In this document: in pieces, positions 5,274 through 17,211 of the stretch
Position numbering within the stretch: position 1 is the first letter of the stretch
How the letters are laid out: each line of letters begins with the position of its first letter
DNA from: Methanotrichaceae archaeon
GTDB taxonomy: Archaea; Halobacteriota; Methanosarcinia; Methanotrichales; Methanotrichaceae
Assembly: GCA_963748825.1 (NCBI GenBank)
Contig: CAVVKN010000022.1
Coordinates: forward strand, 64,001 to 128,000
Direction: 5' to 3'
DNA length: 64,000 bases
Program-made: the position numbers and the translations under genes
The notes under the pieces: model-generated
The model's database searches: none
Seen by the model: only the letters and a program-made list of their open reading frames with translations
What the model was told of the DNA's origin: nothing

Positions 5274-7582
5274 TCAGAAAAATCCCTTTCTGTCGTCGCC
5301 GGAGCTTTTTGGCTTAGGTTTTGTGGCAGTTTTTGCTGTAGATTTGGCAACACCCAATCCCAGCGACCTAGCCAGCTCCCTGAGATCTCTTTTGCCCGGC
5401 TTTGCAGCTTTTGTTCTCCTGGGCATTTGCAGCTCCTCATGACTTGTCTTATTCTCGGGAGGTTTCATCATCTTCCACTCCGCGATTTTTTTTAGAATTA
5501 TTTCTCGGCCCTCTTTTGCGTCTACTAATATCAAATCCTCTCTCACCCAATCCGGCAAAAATGAATTGACGCCGCCCAGGCTGTCATCCCCAAACCGGCG
5601 ATCGCAGAACAAGAGCACCCCCCTTTCCGATTCAGCGCGAATGACTCTTCCTGCTGCCTGCAGTCCCCGGTTGACGGCCGGCAGGGTATAGGCGATGAGC
5701 ATTCCCTTGGCCCGGCCATACTTTCTGGTATAGTAGCCGTTGATCTCTTTTTGAATCTCATCGTATGCAGCCAGGGGCAGGCCAACCACAGCCACCCCGT
5801 TTAAAGCCTCGCCCTTGTAATCAATTCCCTCGGCCATCTTTCCACCGCATACACCCGTTAAGACGCCTCCGCCCCGCCCGGCCAGGCGGAAGAAATCCTG
5901 CAAAATAGATGGCACATCATCGCTGCTTCGAGGCTCTACGCATAGCTTCTTTCCCACCTTGCGGCAGGAGGTGAGACATATTTCTCGGTAATTGTTCATC
6001 ATTGGATAGGAGGTAAAGAAGATGGCCACATTGCCGGGAACGCATTCTATTATCGATTTTATGTGCCCGGATATCTCCTCCCTATTGTCCGCATCTTCCC
6101 TGATCTCCAGTTGAGTAGTTGCCTTTTTTGCAGCCATTAGCAGGCGGTTTTCTTTGGGAAAGGGATTGGGCAGGCTGAGCTTTTGCGCCCTGTTCTCTTC
6201 ACCCAGACAGTAAAGCTCATAGGCCTCCAGGGGCGAGAAGGTGCCGGAGAGCATAATAGTCGCATTGATGTTGTCGGTGATGCGCCGGATATTGGCGGCG
6301 GGATCGATATTGTTGACCTCAAGACGCGCAAATTTCCTGCCGCCCGAACTCGTTACGGCGATCTTTCTCTGATAGGAAGAATCCTTTTCCGCCGTCTCTA
6401 CATCCCTGAGGTAAAGCAGCACCAGTGCAAGACTGGGCTGAATGTCGCCCTGCAGGTTCTCGCGATCGCCTTCTGCGAGATTCAGGTCGGCTACAGCCAC
6501 GGCAACATCGGAGAAATTAGATAGCGCTTCATCAATATCTTCGATGCCATCGTAAAGAAAGGAGCGAAATAGATCTGCGTCCAAGAGAGCCTCCCCTTCC
6601 GGCATCCTCTCCTGCTTGCTCAGCAAAAATCTCTTCAGCCGGGGAAGAAGAAGGCGTATAACTCTAATTCCCTCCCGTCTCCAGGAAGCCTTTTCTCGCG
6701 TCTCTTCCAGCCGGGCCTGGCCCAATGTGCCCTCGAACCTCTCTACCTCTTTTTCCGCCAGATCTATCATGCGCATGGAAAGAAGGCGCGAGTTCATGGC
6801 CCGCACGGCATCGCCCAGGTTATGCGCCTCATCGATGATCAGGGTAACCTTTTCTGATTCCATCTCCAGCCACGGAAGATGATATCTTGAAAGTCCGGGG
6901 AAAAGAGATGGGAATAGTTCATGATCACCATGTCGCAATTTTTGGCATAGAGGCTCATGATCTCGTAAGGACAGATTCCCTGGCAGGATTCCGTTAGTCG
7001 GGATGGCGGTGTGATTCTCTTCTTCAAGCCTTCCACTACATCCAGTGCAAGACTTGATCGCCGGAAATGGACCGTTCCGTTCAGCTCGAAGCCCTCTCTG
7101 CTCCTCAGGTAATAGGGACAGAAGGTTCTGTAGCCTGGCTCCTCCTCCGGCATGTTGTCGGAAGCAGGGTCATAGATGCTTCCGCTGCTCTTGCCGATCC
7201 TTGAGGAGACATAATTTTTTGTCCACTCTCTTAGCCGGGAGCAGCCGGCATAAACGCTCTCCCCGCGAAATTCATCTTCCAGAGGACAGATCTTCTGCTT
7301 GCCCACCATATAGGCTATTTCCGGCCTGTGCCGGGTCTTTGACCAGATCTTGTTTACTTCGTCGATGTAGATATTGATCTGAGAGACCGTTCGCACAGCA
7401 ACAACTGTTTTCCCTGTAGCTGCAGCTAAAACCGAGCAAATGCAGCTCGTTTTTCCCGTGCCGGTGGGCGCGTCTATCATCAGCACGCCATGATCGCCTT
7501 TGCTTACAACATCATAGACCGCGTCTAACATCCTATCCTGGTAGGGCCGGAGCGATTCATAGGGGAAATAGTCCAGGTACAC
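5274..7582 (-). CDS. XPD/Rad3/DinG-like ATP-dependent DNA helicase, frameshift near 6875
   Basis: APTGTGKT and Fe-S Cys motifs in ORF 6839-7582; IIDEAHN, SGT, EGIDY, QAAGRVIR in ORF 5274-6938. Confidence 0.9.
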
Positions 7583-7696
7583 AAAAGAAGGATGATACTA
7601 GGAAGAGATAAATGCTCTCCACAGGGCGAAAATGAAACTCGAAATAGAAAAGTTAAAATTGTATTGGAGACTTGGTAAACCAAGGCAGCACTGAAG

Positions 7697-8299
7697 GTGG
7701 GGATGATGAAGAGGATCATAGTAATTTTATTTATGATTGTGGCAGCAGCAGCTCTACTGCAGGCGGCATCTTCCAGCAAATCCGATTCCATTGGATCCGT
7801 TTTCTTTACACCCGGAACAGACATCAAAAAGGTGGAGGATAAAATGGCTGAGGCTTTGGTCAGGCTCGATTCCTGGAAGAAGGCCCGAGCAGAAGAAAAG
7901 AGAGAACCGCTTGTCAGCGAGATCGAAAAGGCCAAATTGTCCAGCAGCCCACCGGTCAATTTAGCTCTGAATAATTCAACTCTCAATAATATCAGCATCA
8001 ACAGCTCGCTTGGGAATTCTTCCCTTCTCAACTCCTCGGTAGCCAAAGTCTCTGATGCCAATGAAGATCGACTGAAATCCAATGAGGTTGTTTCATCAGA
8101 TCCTGCAAAAATCGATGCAAATAACCTGTCAGCCCGGCAGAATGTTGGATCCAGCTCCAAGGGGAGCTTTAACGGCTACTACGGCATGACCGCCACCCGG
8201 CATGAGATGGGCAAGAGCGGTATAAATTCTAAGATGTTTTTGAGCGGGAACTTTGAGATGGACAAGACTGTCAAATTCCAGGACCAGGGCGTCGATTAA
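7697..8299 (+). CDS. Secreted hypothetical protein
   Basis: Signal peptide, Asn/Ser-rich linker, C-terminal LSGNFEMDKTVKF. Confidence 0.7.
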   Translation: MGMMKRIIVILFMIVAAAALLQAASSSKSDSIGSVFFTPGTDIKKVEDKMAEALVRLDSWKKARAEEKREPLVSEIEKAKLSSSPPVNLALNNSTLNNISINSSLGNSSLLNSSVAKVSDANEDRLKSNEVVSSDPAKIDANNLSARQNVGSSSKGSFNGYYGMTATRHEMGKSGINSKMFLSGNFEMDKTVKFQDQGVD

Positions 8300-8314
8300 G
8301 TCGCGGGGCAGAGA

Positions 8315-9559
8315 ATGAAATGCATTGCTTTTATTTTTATTTTTCTTGTCCTGCCGGTTTGCTTTTCGGCTCAGGCAGCCGAGCCCAAAGAGGAGTGGAA
8401 TTTAACCTTTGGGGGGCAGTACGGAGATGGAGCCTGGTGTTTGCAGGAGACTCTGGACGGCGGCAATATCCTGGTGGGAAATTCTGCATCTAGAGGAGAG
8501 GGAAGCGACCTGTTCCTGATCAGAACCGATGGATTGGGAAAATGCATCTGGAGCAAGATCCTAGGAGGATCGGGAGAGGACGTGGGATACTTCGTGCAAG
8601 AGACGAGAGACGGCGGATTTATTGTCACGGGAAGCACAAAATCTTTCGCCATGGGCGAGGAGCTCTTATGGCTTGTCAAGACGGACGGCAATGGGAGCCT
8701 CAGTTGGGATAAAACCTTTGGCGGATTTGTATCCTCTTCCGGGGATGGCGGGTGGTCTGTTGATGAGACCGATGACGCAGGCTTCATCACAACCGGATAC
8801 ACTCAATCACTGGGAAGCGGCAGAAAGGATCTCTGGCTGATTAAGACCGATGGACAGGGCAGCAAGATCTGGGATAAAACCTTTGGCGGGCGGGAAGATG
8901 ATGTGGGCATGTCCGTCTTGCAGAGCCGGGACGGCGGATATATTGTGGCTGGACGGACTGCATCCTTTGGCAAAGGAGGAGACGACATCTGGCTCCTTAA
9001 AACCGATTCCAGGGGAGAAGAGCTTTGGAACGCAACCTTTGGCGGTAAACAGGATGATGCCGGCTTTCAGGTTGTAGAGCTTAGAGATGGCTATGCTGTG
9101 GTGGGCAGGACAGAATCGGGCTCGGATAAGAAGAAGATCATTCTCATTAAAGTGGATCTTGATGGCCAGAAGCTGTGGGAGAAGACTTTCAAGGGAAGCT
9201 CGGCCTCTTCACTGCAATCGACTGCAGATGGCGGCTTTGTCATTGCAGGAAGAATAGACAACAAAGAAACCGGAAGAGATGCGCTCGTCATTAAGACCGA
9301 TTCCACAGGCAGCGAGGAGTGGTCGATGACCTTAGGAGGCAGCGCAGACGATATCGGCACCTTCGTAATTCAGAGCAGAGATGGCTCATATACGCTGGCT
9401 GGCATAACCAGCTCCTATGGGCTTGGAAGGGAGGACGCCTGGCTGGTCAAGATTCGAGAGGGACCGCCAAGCAAGGAAAATGAGACACAATTGAAGAAAT
9501 TAGTATTTCCAAATTCTGCATCGCTCAATTCAGCATCATCCAATTCAACATCGACCTAA
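8315..9559 (+). CDS. Secreted beta-propeller repeat protein
   Basis: Signal peptide and about 7 repeats of WDKTFGG..DD.G.SV.QT.DGG.IVAG...D.WL.KTD..G. Confidence 0.85.
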   Translation: MKCIAFIFIFLVLPVCFSAQAAEPKEEWNLTFGGQYGDGAWCLQETLDGGNILVGNSASRGEGSDLFLIRTDGLGKCIWSKILGGSGEDVGYFVQETRDGGFIVTGSTKSFAMGEELLWLVKTDGNGSLSWDKTFGGFVSSSGDGGWSVDETDDAGFITTGYTQSLGSGRKDLWLIKTDGQGSKIWDKTFGGREDDVGMSVLQSRDGGYIVAGRTASFGKGGDDIWLLKTDSRGEELWNATFGGKQDDAGFQVVELRDGYAVVGRTESGSDKKKIILIKVDLDGQKLWEKTFKGSSASSLQSTADGGFVIAGRIDNKETGRDALVIKTDSTGSEEWSMTLGGSADDIGTFVIQSRDGSYTLAGITSSYGLGREDAWLVKIREGPPSKENETQLKKLVFPNSASLNSASSNSTST

Positions 9560-9618
9560 CATGTTCAAGCAGAAGCTACCGGAAATGAGATTAGCGGAGA
9601 AGAAAAAATTTTTAAAAG

Positions 9619-10356
9619 ATGAGATGCATAGAGCCACTGATGCCAACACACGTCAGGATCTCTGAAATAGGCCTCTATCTGCGCTGCCCCCGGCTGATTT
9701 ACTTTGAAAATCTGAGAAGGACGCCCAAAAAGATCGATACCAAGCAGATCCTCCTAAGAAGCCTCATGCTCTCTTTTTCCCAAAAAAAAGATCTGGAAGG
9801 CCAGCTAAAAGAGAGCCTGGCCAGGTTGGAAGCGGAACTGCCTTTGGTTTATGAGATCGAGCCGGATGAGATGGAGCCGGCCTGCCGGGAGCTGGAAGGA
9901 GAGATTGCCGGTATTGCCCAGGGCCTGGCCGGGCACCTGGACCTTCTGCTTCCCTGCCAGGCAGAGGTTGACCTTTTTTCGGATAAATTGGGCCTCTCCG
10001 GCAGGCTGGACCGCCTGGCACCGGGCAGCACTCCTTCCCTCATCCGCACGGGCAAAGCCCCGCAGGACGGCATCTGGAAAAGGGACAGGCTCATGCTGGC
10101 GGGTTATGCCCTGCTCTTGGGCGAGAAGAACAAGACGCATATAAATCAAGGACTGGTGGAGTATCCGGCCCTGGCCCTGGTTCGAGCCGCTGAGATCCAC
10201 AGCGTAGACAGAGCACGAGTGCTGCGCATTCGAGACAGAATAAGGCTGATAAAAGAAGGGCAGCTTCCCGACCGGCCCGAGGATGCACCCTGCCAGGCTT
10301 GCGAGGCGAGGGAGATTTGCGAGACCAGGCATAGTCTGGCGTCGAAATTCTTTTAG
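9619..10356 (+). CDS. Solo Cas4/Dna2-like PD-(D/E)XK nuclease with Fe-S cysteines
   Basis: YLRCPRLIYF, LSGRLDRL, C-terminal CQAC....IC; no CRISPR array or other cas genes nearby. Confidence 0.85.
   Translation: MRCIEPLMPTHVRISEIGLYLRCPRLIYFENLRRTPKKIDTKQILLRSLMLSFSQKKDLEGQLKESLARLEAELPLVYEIEPDEMEPACRELEGEIAGIAQGLAGHLDLLLPCQAEVDLFSDKLGLSGRLDRLAPGSTPSLIRTGKAPQDGIWKRDRLMLAGYALLLGEKNKTHINQGLVEYPALALVRAAEIHSVDRARVLRIRDRIRLIKEGQLPDRPEDAPCQACEAREICETRHSLASKFF
10229..10355 (+). repeat. Left direct repeat of island (3' end of the Cas4-like gene)
   Basis: TTCGAGACAGAATAAGGCTGATAAAAGA...GGCATAGTCTGGCGTC..ATTCTTTT recurs at 17885-18010. Confidence 0.9.
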
Positions 10357-10458: not shown

Positions 10459-13400
10459 GTGAGCAATGGTTGGGATAACCCGAGGGAGAGATATTTGGTG
10501 GCATCTGCGGAGATAATCAAGAAGGGGGACGTGTTTAATAATAGCGGCCTTTTTTCAAATCATTACTTAGAGAATATGATCCAAAAGGTCCCAGAATGGG
10601 ATGATGAAGCTCATCTCCTTGAAACCTTCTCGCGAATAAAAGAAATCTTCGATCGGAAAGGGAAAAATTTCGAAAGGTACGTTGAGGCCGATCTGGAACA
10701 CAATTGGGTCAGGCCGGTTTTTGACAAACTTGGTCACCATTACGGGGTTCAGGAAGGCTTACATCACGATCCCCTGAAACCCGATTATGCCTTCTTTCCC
10801 GATCTTGAGACTCTGGAAGAGGCTTATTCTCACAAGAGGGGCGCAGAAGATTTCTATAAGAAAGCCATTGCGGTTGGAGATGCTAAAGCCTGGAATGTGC
10901 TTTTAGATAAAAGCCGCCAGGGGAAAGCGCATCGAGAGATGACCAATCCTAGCTTTCAAATAGACGTTTATCTCCGAGCTACTCCGCCCAAGTGGGCGAT
11001 TCTCACCAACGGGAGAATGTGGAGGCTTTACCACGAAGACACGAGCGTCAAGATGGACTGTTACTATGAGGTAAATCTTCCAGAGTTGATTAATAGGATC
11101 GAGGAGACCGGCGATATCACGCTTTTCAAGTATTTTTATTTATTCTTCAGGCTTGAAGCCTTCCCCCAAGTCCCGCTCGGTTCATCTTTTCTGGATAGAA
11201 TCCGGGAGGAGAGCGCGGCATACTCCCAGAAGATTGGAACAGATCTGCAAGAGAATGTCTACAAAGCAATGAAGGTCTTGGCTGAAGGCTTTTTTGCAGA
11301 GCAATCAAACTCGTTGTCACATTTGACGGAAGACATAAAAGATGTTCAGAATAACTCCATGCGCCTGCTTTATCGCCTTCTATTCATCTTCTATGCCGAG
11401 AGCAGGAAGCTACTGAACACTGACAACAAACACTACCGGGAAATGAGTCTTCGCAAACTGAAGGAAGAAATCTCAGAAAAGATGGATCAGGGCGAGACTA
11501 TGCTTGCGGTCAGATCCACTTACTGGGAAGGATTAAAGGACCTGTTCCGCCTCATAAACGATGGTAGTGAAGCCTTTGGTTATCCTAAGGAAGAGTTCTA
11601 CATACCGGCATACAATGGCGGGCTCTTCGATCCTACGAAAAATCCGTTTCTCTCAGTGAAGAAGATAGGAAACTCATATCTGGCAGAGGCCATCGATCTC
11701 CTGGCACGTTCCCCCGGCGAGGGGAAAATGGTTTTCGTTGATTATTCGTCCCTGGACATTCGGCACCTGGGATCGATCTATGAAGGCATTCTTGAGTACA
11801 AGTTACACCTGGCTGAGGAGCCGATGGTGGCCATCAAAGAAAAGGGAAAAGAGGTCTGGTCGCTGAAAGGAGAGGCTGCCGGCAAGAAATTCTCAGATAG
11901 CGTTGAGGCGGGCTGCCTGTATTTGGTGACGGATAAGGGCGAAAGAAAGGCCACGGGCTCCTTCTACACACCGGAATATATCGTGAAGCACATGGTGAAA
12001 AACACACTTGCGCCACTGATCGATCCGATGATGGAGGAAGCAATGTGGTCTGAGGACCTGCGCAAGGATCTTCTCAAGAAGCTGCTCTCTCTCAAGGTTC
12101 TCGATCCGGCCATGGGATCAGGTCATTTTCTAGTTGAAGCTACGGATTACATTGCCAGGGAGATTATTCATGCCAAAGAGATAGCCAGACATGAGGATCT
12201 GGAATCTGAAGATATTGCGGAGAACGATATTCATTGGGCGCGGCGTGAGGTGGTCAGAAACTGCATCTACGGCGTGGACCTCAACCCAATGGCCGTGGAG
12301 CTGGCCAAATTATCGTTGTGGCTGACCACAGTTGCCTCTAACAAGCCCCTGAGCTTTTTGGACCACCACCTGAGATGCGGAAACAGCGCTCATCGGGGCG
12401 GAGCTGGATAAGCTCGCCACCTTGCCGGGCGGGCAGGCAGAGCAGACGCCGCTCTGGAGCTTTGGGCTGAAGAGCCACACGAGCGGGCTTCTCAAAAGGT
12501 ACAGCCTCATGGCGGCGCTGCCGGACGACAATTTGCAGATGGTCAAATGGAAGGAGGATCAGTTCCGCCAGATCAAGGAGTCGGAGCTCTCCCGCAGGCT
12601 GAACGAGCTTTCTAATGTCTGGCTGTCCACATTTTTCGGCAACAAAGTGAGTGATGACGATTACTACGAGCTGCAAAACCACCTCAGCCCGGAGAAGTTT
12701 CCGGACTGGGCCGGCCTGCGGGAGCGGGAGTGGTTCACACGGGCGCAGGCGCTGGGGCAGGAGAAGCGGTTCTTCCACTGGGAGCTGGAGTTTCCGGAGG
12801 CGTTTCAGGGGGAGAAACGGGGATTCGATGTGGTGATCGGGAATCCACCGTACGACGAGCTATCCGAAGTGGCTCTGGGACGAAAAATTGATGAGAAGAA
12901 ATATTTCCAAGAATCTCAAATATATCAAATAGCTGCAACCAATAGAATAAATCTATTACCGATTTTTCATAGCTTGCGCTTTAGATAAAATCAAAAAAAG
13001 AAGGTGTTCATGGATTCATTGTACCTATGTCCCTTCTTGGTGATCGTTTTACTTTTGAGCTTAGAAGTAAAATTTTAAATGAGTCGGATTTGCAGCAGGT
13101 TGAGGCTTTTCCACAAAAAGATGATCCCAAAGACAGAGTTTTTTTTGACGCTAAGTTGCCTACCTGTGTATACATTTTAGTGCTGGCAATCCCCGAGAAG
13201 TGCATTTCAAGGTCAGGACACACCCGGGAAAGGATCTCAAAATAGGATCGCCTTCATATCTTGCATCATCACCTGAGATAGTGAAATTTGATCCAATTAA
13301 CTTATACAATACCACTCTGTGATAACCATGAGTGGGATCTTGCCAGCAAATTTGCACTAAGTCCGATTCTGTGTCCTATTGGTGATATTGCTGCTCCAAT

Positions 13401-14394
13401 GTCCGGAGAAGTTATGTTTAACGAAGCATTCAGGCCATATCTAAGCGAAAATCCTGAAAATGCTCTTGTGCTTCGAGGCGGACATGTACAGACGCTATGA
13501 ACTAATTGACGACCCTAAGCAGGGGACACCTATTTTTATTAACAAAGAAAGATGGCTAGCAGAATTGAAGAGAGGGAACTTCGGCTTTTGCTCATTTGAA
13601 GTCGAGAGTTGTCTACCAAGAAAGGGCAGCTCTTGATAACTGGCGTCGCATTATCGCAACTTATCTTCCAGCAGGCAATATTTGTGGACATAAGATATGT
13701 TACTTTATTAATGCAAAGTATAATGAGCTTGCATTTTTGGCCATTTTCAATTAGTAGCGTTGTAGAGTGGAGGTATGGATTGGTTAGTACTACCAATAAT
13801 TTATCTGCCTACCAAATAACTGCAATACCTATTCCAAAGTTCAACTTCTCCACCCCCGCTCCCGAGCGCGCTCGCCTGGGGGCGGAGCTGCAGCAGCTCT
13901 ACGCCGAGGGCAAGCACGCCGAGATCCTGGCCCAGATGGAGGCCTGCCTGCCCAAAGACGAGGCAGGCAACTTCATCGCAGAGCAGGAACGTTCGGATGT
14001 AGTGCACGACCTGCTGGCCTTCCTGGCGGAGAGAATGCTGGAGATGAACAAGCAGAAGCAGCAGGAGATCAAAGGCTTCCTGGGATGGCTGGAAGGCTAC
14101 CTGGGCGCAAAGGTCGATGATCTGACGCCCAAGACCAAACTGCAGAGCTACTACGAACACGATTATGAGAGCTTTTTGGCGGTGCTGAAGAAGAACAGCA
14201 AGAAGCTGCAAGTCGATCCGGCCAGACGGGAGCCGGCGGAGGCGCTGCGGGCCGAGTTCGAGGGATCGCTGGGCAAGCTGATGCCACTGCGGGAGAGGAT
14301 CAGGCAGACGGATGAACTGATCGACGCGGTGGTGTACAAACTGTACGGGCTGACGGAAGAGGAAATAAGAATCGTGGAAGGAAATGCAGCTTGA
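10459..14394 (+). pseudogene. Type IIG (Eco57I-like) restriction-modification enzyme with multiple frameshifts (real or assembly artefact)
   Basis: KPDY...DAK nuclease, ILTNGRMWRLY, YNGGLF, GSFYTP, LDPAMGSGHFL, YGVDLNP, GNPPY; indels at ~12387, ~12955, ~12998 and several more in 13200-13760. Confidence 0.85.
13855..14382 (+). repeat. RM C-terminal module, copy 1 (in frame)
   Basis: GC-rich PAPERARLGAELQQLYA...IDAVVYKLYGLTEEEIRIVEG, repeated at 15144 and 17031. Confidence 0.9.
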
Positions 14395-14429
14395 GAGAGT
14401 ATGCGGATTATCAGAGGAGGAAAGGTGCG

Positions 14430-14873
14430 ATGGATCTGATTTATCTTGATTACAATTGCTTTCAAAGAAGATTCGATGATCCCAGCCAGATAAGGATCCA
14501 GCTTGAAGCTCTGGCCTGCGAAGAGATCTTTCTGAGGGCTGAGATTGAAGAGGTCCAATTAGCGTGGTCCTTCATGCATGAGGATGAGACCTTGCTTTGC
14601 CCCTTCCCGAATAGATTGAACGTTGCCTTCATACTTTCCACTCTTTGCAGGATAAGAATTGGACCTGAAGAGCAAATCTATGAATCCGCCCTGGAATTTC
14701 AGAGAAGATCCAAGATGACCTCAAAGGATGCTATCCACCTCGCATGTGCCCATTTTATCAAAGCCGATTACTTCATAAGTTGCGACAATAGACTTGTAAG
14801 GCAGGCTAAGAAAATAGGATTGAAAATGGCGATCTTGAATCCTGTGGATTACATTAGAATGGAGGATCTATGA
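14430..14873 (+). CDS. PIN-domain (VapC-like) toxin
   Basis: IYLDYNCFQRRFDD, DAIHLACA, ADYFISCD, LNPVD. Confidence 0.85.
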   Translation: MDLIYLDYNCFQRRFDDPSQIRIQLEALACEEIFLRAEIEEVQLAWSFMHEDETLLCPFPNRLNVAFILSTLCRIRIGPEEQIYESALEFQRRSKMTSKDAIHLACAHFIKADYFISCDNRLVRQAKKIGLKMAILNPVDYIRMEDL

Positions 14874-15082
14874 CCGATAGAGCAAGGGCAATGGACGAAG
14901 CAAAGCTTAGAGTTCTTGGAATAGATGCCTTGAATAAGGCTTTAGGTCCCGCCGAAGCGCTTAGATTTCTAGCTCTCTTCCACCGTGAGCCAACTGATTA
15001 CGTTGAGGTCTCTAAAAAGCTTTACGAAAATCAGAGTGTGGAAGAAATCTTCAAGCGGGCCAAAACGCATTGGAGAGGCTGA
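14870..15082 (+). CDS. Putative antitoxin partner of the PIN toxin
   Basis: 70 aa, GIDALNKALGP..ALRFL...DY; ATGA overlap. Confidence 0.7.
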   Translation: MTDRARAMDEAKLRVLGIDALNKALGPAEALRFLALFHREPTDYVEVSKKLYENQSVEEIFKRAKTHWRG

Positions 15083-15143
15083 AATTCAAGATAATTGCTT
15101 TTCCGGAAGACATAGAATTCTCTCTTAAGGTCGACTTCACACG

Positions 15144-15683
15144 CCCGCGCCCGAGCGCACCCGCCTGGGAGCGGAGCTGCAGCAGCTCTACGCCGATGGC
15201 AAGCATGCGGAGATCACAGGCCCCTGGTGGATGTCTGCCTGCCCAAAGACGTGGCTGGCAATTTCATCGCAAGCCAGGAGAAATCGGATGTGGTGCACGT
15301 TCTCCTGGCCTTCCTGGCGGAGAGAATGCTGGAGATGAACAAGCAGAAGCAGACGGAGATCAAAGGCTTCTTGGGCTGGCTGGAAAGCTACGTGGGGGCC
15401 AGAGTGGAGAACCTCACGCCCAAAGACAAAGCTGCAGAGCTACTACGAGCACGATTATGAGAGCTTCCTGGCGGTGCTCAAGAAGAACAGCAAGAAGCTG
15501 GCCATCGATCCGGCACGCCGGGAGCCGGCGGAGCTGCTCCGGGCCGAGTTCGAGGGATCGCTGGGCAAGCTGATGCCACTGCGGGAGAGGATCAGGCAGA
15601 CGGATGAACTGATCGACGCGGTGGTGTACAAACTGTACGGGCTGACTGAGGAAGAGATCAGGATTGTGGAAGGGAAGGCTTGA
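15144..15683 (+). repeat. RM C-terminal module, copy 2 (orphan, frameshifted)
   Basis: Near-identical to 13855-14382; ends VEGKA*. Confidence 0.9.
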
Positions 15684-15853
15684 TATGCGCGTGATGTTAT
15701 CCTGCAATTTCTTGATTCATTATTCCGAGAATTCAGTTGATTGCGATACAGATATATACTCGTGTAGATTAATCAATAAGGCATTAGAGACATTATTGAA
15801 AAATAAAAATCTAAAAAATGTAGGATTGGAATTACTAAGAGGAGGGGCAGAAC

Positions 15854-16555
15854 ATGAGCGTGTTGTCCGATGTCAGGCTATTAGAAAAGATCTACGATAA
15901 AGAACTCAAAATAGAGCCCTTCGTCTTTGACAATATCCAGCCCTCCTCCATTGATCTGACCCTGGATAAACGAATACGAACTCCTAAGAGAGGCATTGAG
16001 CTTAATGCATTTGATGCCGATATCAAGGAATGCTTTGAAGAGAGAATTCTTGATGAGTACACCCTCAAACCAGGAGATTTCATTATCGGCCAGATTAAGG
16101 AGAACATCGGCCTTTCCAAAAGGATGACCGGCCTCATTCAAAATAGGAACAGCCTGATTCGTCTGGGAATTAACGTGGGACTATCGTCTTACATCAATCC
16201 TGGCTATTTTGGTCAATTGCCCATAGTCATCCACAATTTGGGAAGCTTCTCCGTGGATCTGGTTCCTGGGATGAGGATCTGTCAGTTGGTCATATTTGAT
16301 GTCGAACCCGATCCCGAAAGAGATTACAGCCAAAGAAAAGACGCCAAATATCTGGGAGAAAGCGACGTCGGTTTATCTAAATTATACATGGATGTGGAAG
16401 TTGAAGAATACTTAAAAGAGTACAATAAAAAGAGCACCAAAGAGATTGATAAAAAGGAACTCATTGAATTCTTGGAACAAAGAATAAAAGAGAAGGCCAT
16501 AGACACACTGAAAGGTCTGACGGACGAGGAAAAACAAAAGATTGGTCTGCTATAA
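15854..16555 (+). CDS. dCTP deaminase/dUTPase-fold protein with substituted catalytic residues and C-terminal helical extension
   Basis: IQPSSIDLTL, NRNSLIRLG, INPGYFGQLPIVIHN, PGMRICQL, KDAKY; strong GAGGAGGGG RBS. Confidence 0.85.
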   Translation: MSVLSDVRLLEKIYDKELKIEPFVFDNIQPSSIDLTLDKRIRTPKRGIELNAFDADIKECFEERILDEYTLKPGDFIIGQIKENIGLSKRMTGLIQNRNSLIRLGINVGLSSYINPGYFGQLPIVIHNLGSFSVDLVPGMRICQLVIFDVEPDPERDYSQRKDAKYLGESDVGLSKLYMDVEVEEYLKEYNKKSTKEIDKKELIEFLEQRIKEKAIDTLKGLTDEEKQKIGLL

Positions 16556-16556
16556 T

Positions 16557-17000
16557 ATGGAAAAGAACTTCAAAGACTTAATTCAAGAGATCAGGCCGTA
16601 TATCGTCAAGGGCATTCAAGATGCAAAAGTTAGTGAGTACGAGCAGAGCTATAAGAAACGGAATGGGAAAAAGCCGTCTGCAGAAGAGATTAACCAGTTT
16701 ATTTCTATTCTAATCGCGAATGGAACAGTAAAGAGCGATGCAGATGAGATTGTAAATGAATTAATTAATAAATATAGTAAAAAATTATTAGTAAAATTAA
16801 TAATAAATTCATCTATTTCACTGGGTTCTGCCGGATTGTTCCTGGTTTATATCTTAATATATTTAAAAACTGTTTTGGGATTGAATATTGTTAAAGAGGA
16901 TTACCTCATAAGCGCGCCAAATTTCATACTAGCTATAATATTATTTTTTATTGCCATCGCCCTATTTGTCATTTCTGTTTCAAAAAAAGACAAAGACTGA
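16557..17000 (+). CDS. Hypothetical membrane protein: soluble helical N-terminus plus 2 C-terminal TM helices
   Basis: ATG 1 bp after the upstream stop; two hydrophobic stretches; very AT-rich. Confidence 0.75.
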   Translation: MEKNFKDLIQEIRPYIVKGIQDAKVSEYEQSYKKRNGKKPSAEEINQFISILIANGTVKSDADEIVNELINKYSKKLLVKLIINSSISLGSAGLFLVYILIYLKTVLGLNIVKEDYLISAPNFILAIILFFIAIALFVISVSKKDKD

Positions 17001-17030
17001 CTATCGTCTGTCCGCATCTCTGCCGCCAAT

Positions 17031-17211
17031 CCCGCGCCCGAGCGCGCCCGCCTAGGGGCGGAGATGCAGCAGCTCTACGCCGATGGCAAGCATGCGGAGA
17101 TCACAGGCCCCTGGTGGATGTCTGCCTGCCCAAAGACGTGGCTGGCAATTTCATCACCGAGCAGGAACGGTCGGACGTGGTCCACTACCTTCTCGCATTC
17201 CTGGCAGAGAG
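17031..17211 (+). repeat. RM C-terminal module, copy 3 (truncated)
   Basis: CCCGCGCCCGAGCGCGCCCGCC...CTGGCAGAGAG; shares the +2 lesion of copy 2. Confidence 0.9.

Follow-up and report, generated by a model that had tools for sequence, protein, structure and literature searches.

A conserved gene pair coupling a catalytically altered dCTP deaminase-fold protein to a two-transmembrane partner in Methanothrix and bacteria

The subject of this study is a pair of adjacent genes in a 64,000-nt stretch of DNA from a Methanotrichaceae archaeon (assembly GCA_963748825.1, contig CAVVKN010000022.1, positions 64,001 to 128,000 of the forward strand). The whole stretch is called the window, all coordinates follow its numbering, and homologous loci carry labels of the L001 type (L017, L098, etc.). 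The first gene encodes DcdL, a protein with the fold of dCTP deaminase (Dcd) and dUTPase, and the second encodes a small membrane protein, called the partner. The gene pair is real, conserved, and undescribed; no description of it was found in full-text literature searches. To judge from the sequences, the cassette is probably a new toxin-antitoxin (TA)-like or anti-virus module common to archaea and bacteria. The general reading, that the pair is a mobile, self-contained conflict module of the TA or abortive-infection kind, is given about an even chance here.

DcdL scores 95.7 bits against PF22769 and 112.7 bits against TIGR02274, the latter exceeding the curated cut-off of 92.8. The AlphaFold2 (AF2) model of the monomer, based on 24 family sequences, has a predicted local distance difference test score (pLDDT) of 90.1. 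In Foldseek, the model matches Dcd and bifunctional DCD-DUT structures from E. coli, M. tuberculosis, and B. halodurans with template modelling scores of 0.86–0.91 (normalised to the target). By fold and by the score of the hidden Markov model (HMM), DcdL belongs with the dCTP deaminases, and the trimeric Dcd/dUTPase fold proposed in a sequence-only reading of the window is borne out at the level of the monomer model. DcdL also shares with the family representatives (E. coli 1XS1, M. tuberculosis 2QXX, and B. halodurans 4XJC) the N-terminal SSIDL strand, the RxS phosphate motif, the RICQL segment, and the Y...KY lid.

The catalytic residues of the fold are well defined. The Glu of Dcd (Glu138 in E. 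coli) activates the deaminating water and is needed for deamination, and the Asp in motif III of trimeric dUTPases and DCD-DUT enzymes activates the hydrolytic water for dUTP hydrolysis. Ser111, Arg115, and His121 are also active-site residues of Dcd. The corresponding residues of DcdL were identified by alignment to the solved structures and to E. coli K-12 Dcd from NC_000913, in which the E. coli segment GRSSLARLG...IDPGWSGCIVLE pairs with NRNSLIRLG...INPGYFGQLPIV in DcdL. Ser111, Asp128, and Glu138 correspond to Asn99, Asn115, and Val125, respectively, which are the three substitutions that had been read by eye. Two extra substitutions were absent from that list: His121 corresponds to Gly109, beside a one-residue deletion, and Arg126 corresponds to Tyr113. 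Among Ser111, Arg115, and His121, Arg115 alone is retained, as Arg103. With Val at the position of the catalytic Glu and Asn at the position of the motif III Asp, DcdL is predicted to fall outside both the functional dCTP deaminases and the dUTPases, despite passing the HMM cut-off. The end of E. coli Dcd coincides with residue 180 of DcdL, and residues 181–233 form an added tail. The tail had been described as charged, helical, and about 55 aa long; it comprises 53 aa, and helices are predicted in the AF2 model at residues 181–189, 200–214, 218–221, and 224–229.

A word-indexed search for relatives of DcdL gave 103 proteins at E ≤ 1e-5, which were split by rank into a family (ranks 1–95, E ≤ 2.6e-25, 85 of the 95 with at least 220 aa) and an outgroup (ranks 96–103, E ≥ 1.2e-17, 179–203 aa). 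Position 115, the Asp site, is Asn in 92 family members, Thr in one, a gap in two, and Asp in none; it is Asp in 8/8 outgroup proteins. Position 125, the Glu site, is Val in 56, Ala in 23, Ile in seven, Thr in four, Ser in two, and Leu in one family member, with two gaps and no Glu, and is Glu in six and Gln in two outgroup proteins. Position 97 is Asn in 92/95 family members and Gly in 8/8 outgroup proteins. The Ser111 site (position 99) is Asn in 77/95 and Ser in 16/95, so this change is not universal. Of the proposed Asn/Asn/Val signature, therefore, the loss of Asp and Glu holds in all 95 proteins and the Ser-to-Asn change in only 77. The family thus differs from the Dcd enzymes by E138→V/A/I, D128→N, S111→N in part, and H121→G/S/A (Gly 72, Ser 12, and Ala 7 of the 95).

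The rest of the pocket is retained. Arg occupies the Arg115 site in 87/95 family members, and the residues that in Dcd contact the triphosphate or form the lid are conserved: Arg98 (94/95), Ser100 (93/95), Gln144 (92/95), Tyr158 (91/95), Lys165 (89/95), and Tyr166 (89/95). The pocket region, NRNSLIRLGINVGLSSYINPGY.GKLPI, is the best-conserved part of the family, with Asn97 and Asn115 near-invariant and Pro123 found in 81/95 members. In the six Methanothrix copies, the ratio of nonsynonymous to synonymous substitution rates (dN/dS), where dS is unsaturated, is 0.03–0.06 for DcdL and 0.05–0.09 for the partner. DcdL represents a conserved clade under strong purifying selection and not a product of decay. 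Homologs keeping Ser, Asp, and Glu had been named as the mark of a copy that is simply decaying; since no homolog among the 95 retains Asp or Glu, simple decay is refuted.

Public records and the TIGR02274 cut-off name the family ‘dCTP deaminase’, though the catalytic Glu is found in no member; the relatives bear this name because the TIGR02274 score exceeds the cut-off. The label is a systematic annotation error, and pathway reconstructions counting DcdL proteins as Dcd would be wrong.

The partner had been taken for a helical domain with two transmembrane helices, and this description agrees with its AF2 model, which is all-helical (pLDDT 93.3). The hydrophobic helices lie at about residues 81–101 and 114–145, and the helix of residues 57–107 spans from the soluble part into the first transmembrane helix. 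The family is recognised by an N-terminal motif, LRPxII..EY..YK..N.G..PS..IN.FI..LI..G...EAD, followed by the two hydrophobic helices. An exhaustive phmmer search over 1.84 billion representatives gave only 52 clusters at E ≤ 0.001, mostly of 129–170 aa, the exceptions being six shorter proteins (54–122 aa) and one of 895 aa. The Foldseek search of the model against the PDB gave nothing at E ≤ 0.001, and the low-probability CorA/MRS2 matches are no evidence of relationship. The top score in the protein atlas, 0.84, is under the useful range.

The pairing of the two genes was scanned in 199 loci (80 genome contigs, 39 viral contigs, and 80 metagenome contigs) with HMMs made from the DcdL and partner alignments. 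Loci were typed by the sequence motif surrounding the Asp and Glu sites, which gave 83 N-type loci, 105 canonical D-type loci (102 with Glu), and 11 unparsed loci. A partner match is found in 73 loci, all of them N-type; the partner HMM has no match in the 116 canonical or unparsed Dcd loci, anywhere within the 5–6 kb flanks. The full tail is present in 70 N-type loci, 62 of which have at least 450 nt of downstream sequence, and an adjacent downstream partner is found in 62/62 of these, or in 23/23 full-tail loci after de-duplication at about 90%. The spacing between the two genes is −29 to +9 nt. The pairing is obligate. The altered motif without Asp and Glu, the tail, and the membrane partner, whose co-occurrence had been suggested as a check, form a conserved selected unit.

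Eleven partner matches are partial. In seven of these loci, 474 nt or less lies downstream, so that the gene is, or may be, cut off where the contig ends; in L025, L028, and L169 it is truncated within the contig, and L036 has a complete but divergent ORF (open reading frame) of 153 aa. In a divergent N-type group with short tails, the partner is detectable by the HMM in 4/12 loci, and in L041, L098/L186, and L193 of this group the next gene encodes a helical two-transmembrane protein of about 150 aa that the HMM misses. The pairwise identities of DcdL and the partner co-vary (r = 0.947 for 29 unique pairs; 0.64 below 70% DcdL identity), with the partner evolving faster. This covariation is a sign of joint inheritance rather than of contact, and shared descent alone could suffice for it.

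The genome of the window has a second Dcd-fold gene (163 aa, contig C3:41666-42088; L002 1495-1986, minus strand), in which Asp is present and Leu occupies the Glu position. This 163-aa gene of the genus looks dUTPase-like. In a sample of 31 related genomes, a Dcd-fold match is found in 28, and the 233-aa type above the family cut-off in three, all among the 19 sampled genomes of the genus; these three DcdL genes, all without Glu, are the only ones above the TIGR02274 cut-off in the sample. The 163-aa gene is the widespread one, and DcdL does not show the distribution of a core housekeeping gene. The search for a separate canonical dcd that had been recommended thus leads to the dUTPase-like gene and leaves DcdL as an accessory gene, not the housekeeping copy. 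The partner profile matches 9/59 genomes of the genus, eight of them strongly, and 7/30 of those at least 90% complete.

Outside Methanothrix, the pair is found at 37–61% identity in metagenome-assembled genomes labelled as Ca. Loosdrechtia, Leptospirales, Alphaproteobacteria, Bacillota, Halanaerobiales, Synergistaceae, Spirochaetia, Desulfovibrionaceae, Lachnospiraceae, and Enterobacterales. It is carried by at least eight bacterial lineages, often on integrative elements or beside restriction-modification (RM) or TA genes. This distribution indicates that the pair is accessory and mobile, and that both genes move together among archaea, bacteria, and integrative elements.

We inspected the neighbourhoods of 30 loci over about 5 kb, with PADLOC for the window region and the first 18 loci and Pfam only for the other 12. 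RM genes lie near the pair in 4/30 loci (L017, L023, L153, and L156). TA or defence-family genes are found in 5/30: MNT/HEPN with PDC-S09 in L028, SoFic with HicAB in L029, an adjacent PDC-S05 in L036, a PDC-S04 Fic in L041, and AAA_21 with Bro-N in L188. Hallmarks of mobile elements are found in 9/30 (L035, L039, L040, L162, L167, L168, L180, L182, and L098). No conserved third gene stands beside the pair in these 30 neighbourhoods, and no cyclase or TIR was matched by PADLOC in the window region and the first 18 loci. Overall, the genomic link to defence or mobile-element genes is moderate and suggestive only, with such company in 18/30 loci and housekeeping or unknown neighbours only in 12/30.

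Three loci from human-gut metagenomes deserve attention. In L162, L167, and L168, one side of the pair has a gene resembling an HTH repressor and, after it, a primase-type gene (Prim-Pol/D5_N or VapE-like), and the other flank is a different host gene in each (histidine phosphatase, pyruvate kinase, and ABC transporter). The sharing of the pair together with the repressor and primase side, combined with the difference in the host flank, shows transport on an integrative element, and the pair in these loci looks like part of a small, satellite-like one. Similarly, two integrases lie upstream of the pair in L035, a CI-like repressor and a primase adjoin it in L096, and S24 repressors lie upstream in L040 and L182. 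Among the viral contigs, only 2/39 matches are full-tail family members. The viral contig L098 (6001-8200) carries a short-tail pair between a DnaB-like helicase and the genes for holin, lysozyme, and terminase, just upstream of the latter.

In Methanothrix, all copies with enough flanking sequence lie between direct repeats of about 535 bp, which copy the 3'-terminal ~180 codons of a type IIG RM gene. The repeat unit runs from near the peptide ...PAPERARLG.ELQQLYA to the stop codon of the RM gene; the downstream copies are frameshifted or truncated. The number of tail copies per locus is one to seven, with seven in 7.4 kb in L022 (L022 1-7461). Besides the window (13853-17211) and L022, such arrays are seen in L140, L144, and L145, and no integrase is found near the Methanothrix arrays. 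DcdL and the partner occupy 18/31 cassettes listed. The other 13/31 hold a PIN gene accompanied by a small ORF, ParE/RelE-like genes that also come with small ORFs, a GNAT protein of 251 aa, or an orphan ORF of 70 aa. Judged by its company, the pair behaves as the surrounding TA cassettes do. The Methanothrix context favours a TA or addiction cassette at least as much as a dedicated antiviral system. As a way of gathering TA cassettes, the arrays merit separate study.

In the window, both ORFs lie where they had been read and the flanking RM-tail repeats are real, in three copies; the features are listed in Table 1. The partner ATG is at 16557, 1 nt past the DcdL stop. The AT-richness ascribed to the two genes is seen in GC contents of 0.416 for DcdL and 0.32 for the partner; the cassette as a whole is at 0.376, compared with 0.505 in the window and about 0.515 in the immediate flanks. 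The PIN-like ORF of the neighbouring cassette scores 23.4 bits, just below the cut-off of 23.6, and its homolog in L017 scores 52 bits for PIN; the 70-aa ORF that follows is antitoxin-like by position and matches no family. The type IIG RM gene is an intact ORF of 1329 aa in L017. The term ‘defence island’ used for these surroundings is only partly apt: the RM gene of the window is broken, and a PIN-like pair, a Cas4-like nuclease, and a split DinG-like helicase lie nearby.

Table 1 Features of the gene pair and its surroundings in the window
Feature	Coordinates	Strand	Description
Type IIG RM / DrmMI-like gene	10459..14394	+	Split into at least 5 ORFs
RM-tail repeat copy 1	13853..14394	+	Shares its reading frame with the final type IIG RM fragment
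Neighbouring cassette (between tail copies 1 and 2)	14391..15082	+	PIN-like ORF 14391-14873 and 70-aa ORF 14870-15082
RM-tail repeat copy 2	15144..15679	+	87% identity to copy 1; frame split into two ORFs
Low-GC cassette	15684..17030	+	GC 0.376; edges are RM-tail repeat copies 2 and 3
AGGAGG, ribosome-binding-like motif	15840..15845	+	8 nt 5' of the DcdL start codon; read from the sequence
DcdL	15854..16555	+	233-aa ORF with the Dcd/dUTPase fold; Asp and Glu sites are N115 and V125; tail 181-233
Partner	16557..17000	+	147 aa; N-terminal helical domain and two C-terminal transmembrane helices; no family match
RM-tail repeat copy 3	17031..17211	+	85% identity; truncated, first 181 nt of the unit

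The pair was compared with known systems that use the same fold or the same division of labour. Trimeric phage dUTPases are nucleotide-gated signalling proteins, active enzymes that bind Stl, the repressor of Staphylococcus aureus pathogenicity islands, and herpesviruses have inactive dUTPase-related proteins. These proteins are precedents for the use of the fold in signalling or binding rather than catalysis, and have a C-terminal arm that becomes ordered when nucleotide binds. Unlike DcdL, however, the phage dUTPases are active and act on a repressor, and none of these proteins is known to be paired with a membrane protein. DcdL matches dUTPases at E values of 1e-3 to 1e-9, and no sequence relation is found beyond the fold. 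Beyond the fold features shared with the Dcd family, DcdL adds the 53-aa helical tail, the obligate membrane-protein partner, and an accessory, mobile distribution.

The anti-phage dCTP deaminase, or AvcD, has the Zn-dependent CMP/dCMP-deaminase fold, which is unlike that of DcdL. It is an active enzyme that works by nucleotide depletion, and what it has in common with DcdL is the annotation name and the link to pyrimidine deoxynucleoside triphosphates (dNTPs). The PADLOC models, including that for anti-phage dCTP deaminase/AvcD, contain no family for DcdL or the partner at E values up to 1, which answers the suggestion that the pair be searched for among catalogued defence systems. RexAB and the transmembrane effectors of CBASS, Pycsar, Thoeris, and retrons make up systems of a sensor and a membrane effector. 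The pair resembles these in combining a cytosolic sensor with a small multi-pass or two-transmembrane effector and in being mobile and patchy, but differs from CBASS, Pycsar, Thoeris, and retrons in having no cyclase, TIR, or reverse-transcriptase partner and no PADLOC sequence match. The signal-making CD-NTase, pyrimidine cyclase, or TIR encoded alongside the effector in CBASS, Pycsar, and Thoeris was not found by PADLOC beside the pair in the window region or the first 18 loci. By this comparison, the fold of DcdL would be new for the sensor in a sensor-plus-membrane-effector role.

Two published studies touch on related annotations. In the accessible part of the DefensePredictor study, ‘dUTPase’ appears among the predicted, unvalidated defence domains with no mention of a transmembrane partner, and its identity with the DcdL family is not established (PMC13092281). 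The listing is an independent hint that predicted defence systems include proteins of the dUTPase fold. Likewise, the part available of a study of D. piger prophages places a ‘dCTP deaminase’ among the prophage accessory genes, whose identity with the DcdL family is not shown (PMC12724379).

The pair has the traits of TA and abortive-infection modules: a tight bicistron, mobility, a patchy distribution, and a place among TA and defence genes. From these traits, we infer that a defence or TA reading is well motivated. The earlier interpretation, a pseudo-enzyme that triggers a membrane effector, is supported in part, as the computational checks proposed with it turned out in its favour. A mechanism can be outlined as follows. 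DcdL, as a trimer, would hold a pyrimidine dNTP and leave it unconverted. The lid would order over the bound nucleotide, as in Dcd and dUTPases, and its movement would position the added helical tail. The tail would keep the partner inactive by touching its N-terminal helical domain, which is taken to be cytosolic. A dNTP pool altered by infection, a modified dNTP, a DcdL-binding protein, or halted synthesis of the pair might each free the partner, which would then oligomerise via its two transmembrane helices, damage the membrane, and stop the cell together with any virus inside. The complete scheme, in which a dead Dcd trimer responds to the state of the pyrimidine dNTP pool, or to a modified dNTP that a virus makes, the lid and tail gate a two-transmembrane pore-former, and the cassette works in methanogens and bacteria, delivered in Methanothrix by the undescribed RM-tail array, is offered as a tentative possibility. 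If it holds, the module of 380 aa in total would contain the first immune or suicide sensor on the Dcd/dUTPase fold and a new sensor fold for prokaryotic conflict systems, and would link the dNTP pool directly to cell suicide at the membrane, with no enzyme activity or second messenger between. It would do so in archaea, a domain with few tested defence or TA mechanisms, as well as in gut and digester bacteria.

Several observations weigh against the reading as a conflict module. Pfam, NCBIfam, PADLOC, and PHROGs all lack a family for the partner, and tblastn with two versions of it recovered nothing from the 50,697 phage and 72,556 plasmid records searched. The 199 loci were fetched with family-derived peptide patterns, so that the sample behind the pairing counts is not neutral, and the partner is truncated inside the contigs of L025, L028, and L169. 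No fusion of DcdL and the partner is found among longer proteins, nor any protein of about 380 aa in a near-length search. The defence, TA, or mobile-element company in 18/30 loci comes without a background rate, and the remaining 12/30 loci offer only housekeeping or unknown neighbours. The contact of the tail with the partner is purely conjectural. Comparison of the DcdL tail with the N-terminal domain of the partner by hhalign gave a probability of 9.6% and a pairwise E of 0.0033, too weak to claim homology of the two; it is a lead only. Asn in place of the Asp and a small hydrophobic residue in place of the Glu would still permit some other chemistry.

In one alternative, DcdL is an active enzyme with a new pyrimidine-nucleotide chemistry, working at the membrane in a metabolic or nucleotide-modifying accessory function, with the partner as its anchor or regulator. 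That the pocket is the best-conserved region of the family, and that its replacements are conserved too, would fit such an enzyme. Against it, both residues driving the two chemistries of the fold are gone in all 95 family members, no conserved third gene points to a pathway, and the distribution is patchy and tied to mobile elements. We consider this alternative improbable. Little different in standing, and also improbable, is the view that the pair belongs to phages or satellites and serves its own element, in superinfection exclusion, lysis timing, or counter-defence, with the cellular copies as remnants. The short-tail relative and its 150-aa two-transmembrane neighbour beside the helicase, holin, lysozyme, and terminase genes of L098 speak in its favour, as do the repressor and primase beside the pair in L096, L162, L167, and L168 and the S24 repressors in L040 and L182; the ‘dCTP deaminase’ of the D. 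piger prophages may do so too. However, only two of the 39 viral-contig matches have the full tail, the partner is without a match in the phage genomes searched, no phage genes surround the Methanothrix cassette, and at least nine loci lie in ordinary chromosomal surroundings.

Another alternative is an addiction cassette of a purely selfish kind. Here, the partner is a membrane toxin and DcdL its protein antitoxin, and the two stabilise the array or element that carries them, with no antiviral role. The classic TA genes of the Methanothrix arrays (PIN, ParE/RelE, and GNAT), the layout of two adjacent or overlapping genes, and the carriage of the pair on integrative elements are all consistent with it. 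The nucleotide pocket, however, is conserved with its triphosphate and lid residues intact, which exceeds the needs of a simple antitoxin, and RM and defence-family genes are neighbours in several lineages. The two readings also overlap, since many TA modules defend against phage. Addiction without any antiviral role is judged unlikely. The idea that DcdL is a housekeeping dcd copy in decay, and the small membrane ORF beside it unrelated, draws on the automatic annotation as ‘dCTP deaminase’ and the score above the TIGR02274 cut-off, and has a negligible probability. The same residues are changed across 95 relatives in two domains of life, and the housekeeping Dcd-fold gene is the different, 163-aa protein in nearly all relatives; this candidate was rejected on the clade-wide signature, the 62/62 pairing, and the dN/dS values of 0.03–0.09.

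Some minor observations concern the Methanothrix loci. Two metatranscriptome runs, from two studies, contain one short DcdL contig each (229 nt with no differences and 251 nt with two), for which DNA carry-over is possible; the partner gene is not covered in these two runs, which proves nothing about its expression. A 1714-bp contig labelled Minisyncoccia (L019) carries a 95%-identical Methanothrix cassette including the RM-tail repeat, and is probably a mis-binned Methanothrix contig rather than a case of transfer. In L023, a 436-aa ORF with weak DDE-transposase matches lies inside the RM gene. Upstream of the RM gene in the window, the region 5277-10353 contains the DinG-like helicase, split on the minus strand into the overlapping ORFs 5277-6938 and 6842-7582, two ORFs (200 and 414 aa) without a family match, and the Cas4-like PD-(D/E)XK nuclease at 9619-10353. 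This region could be another defence-type locus.

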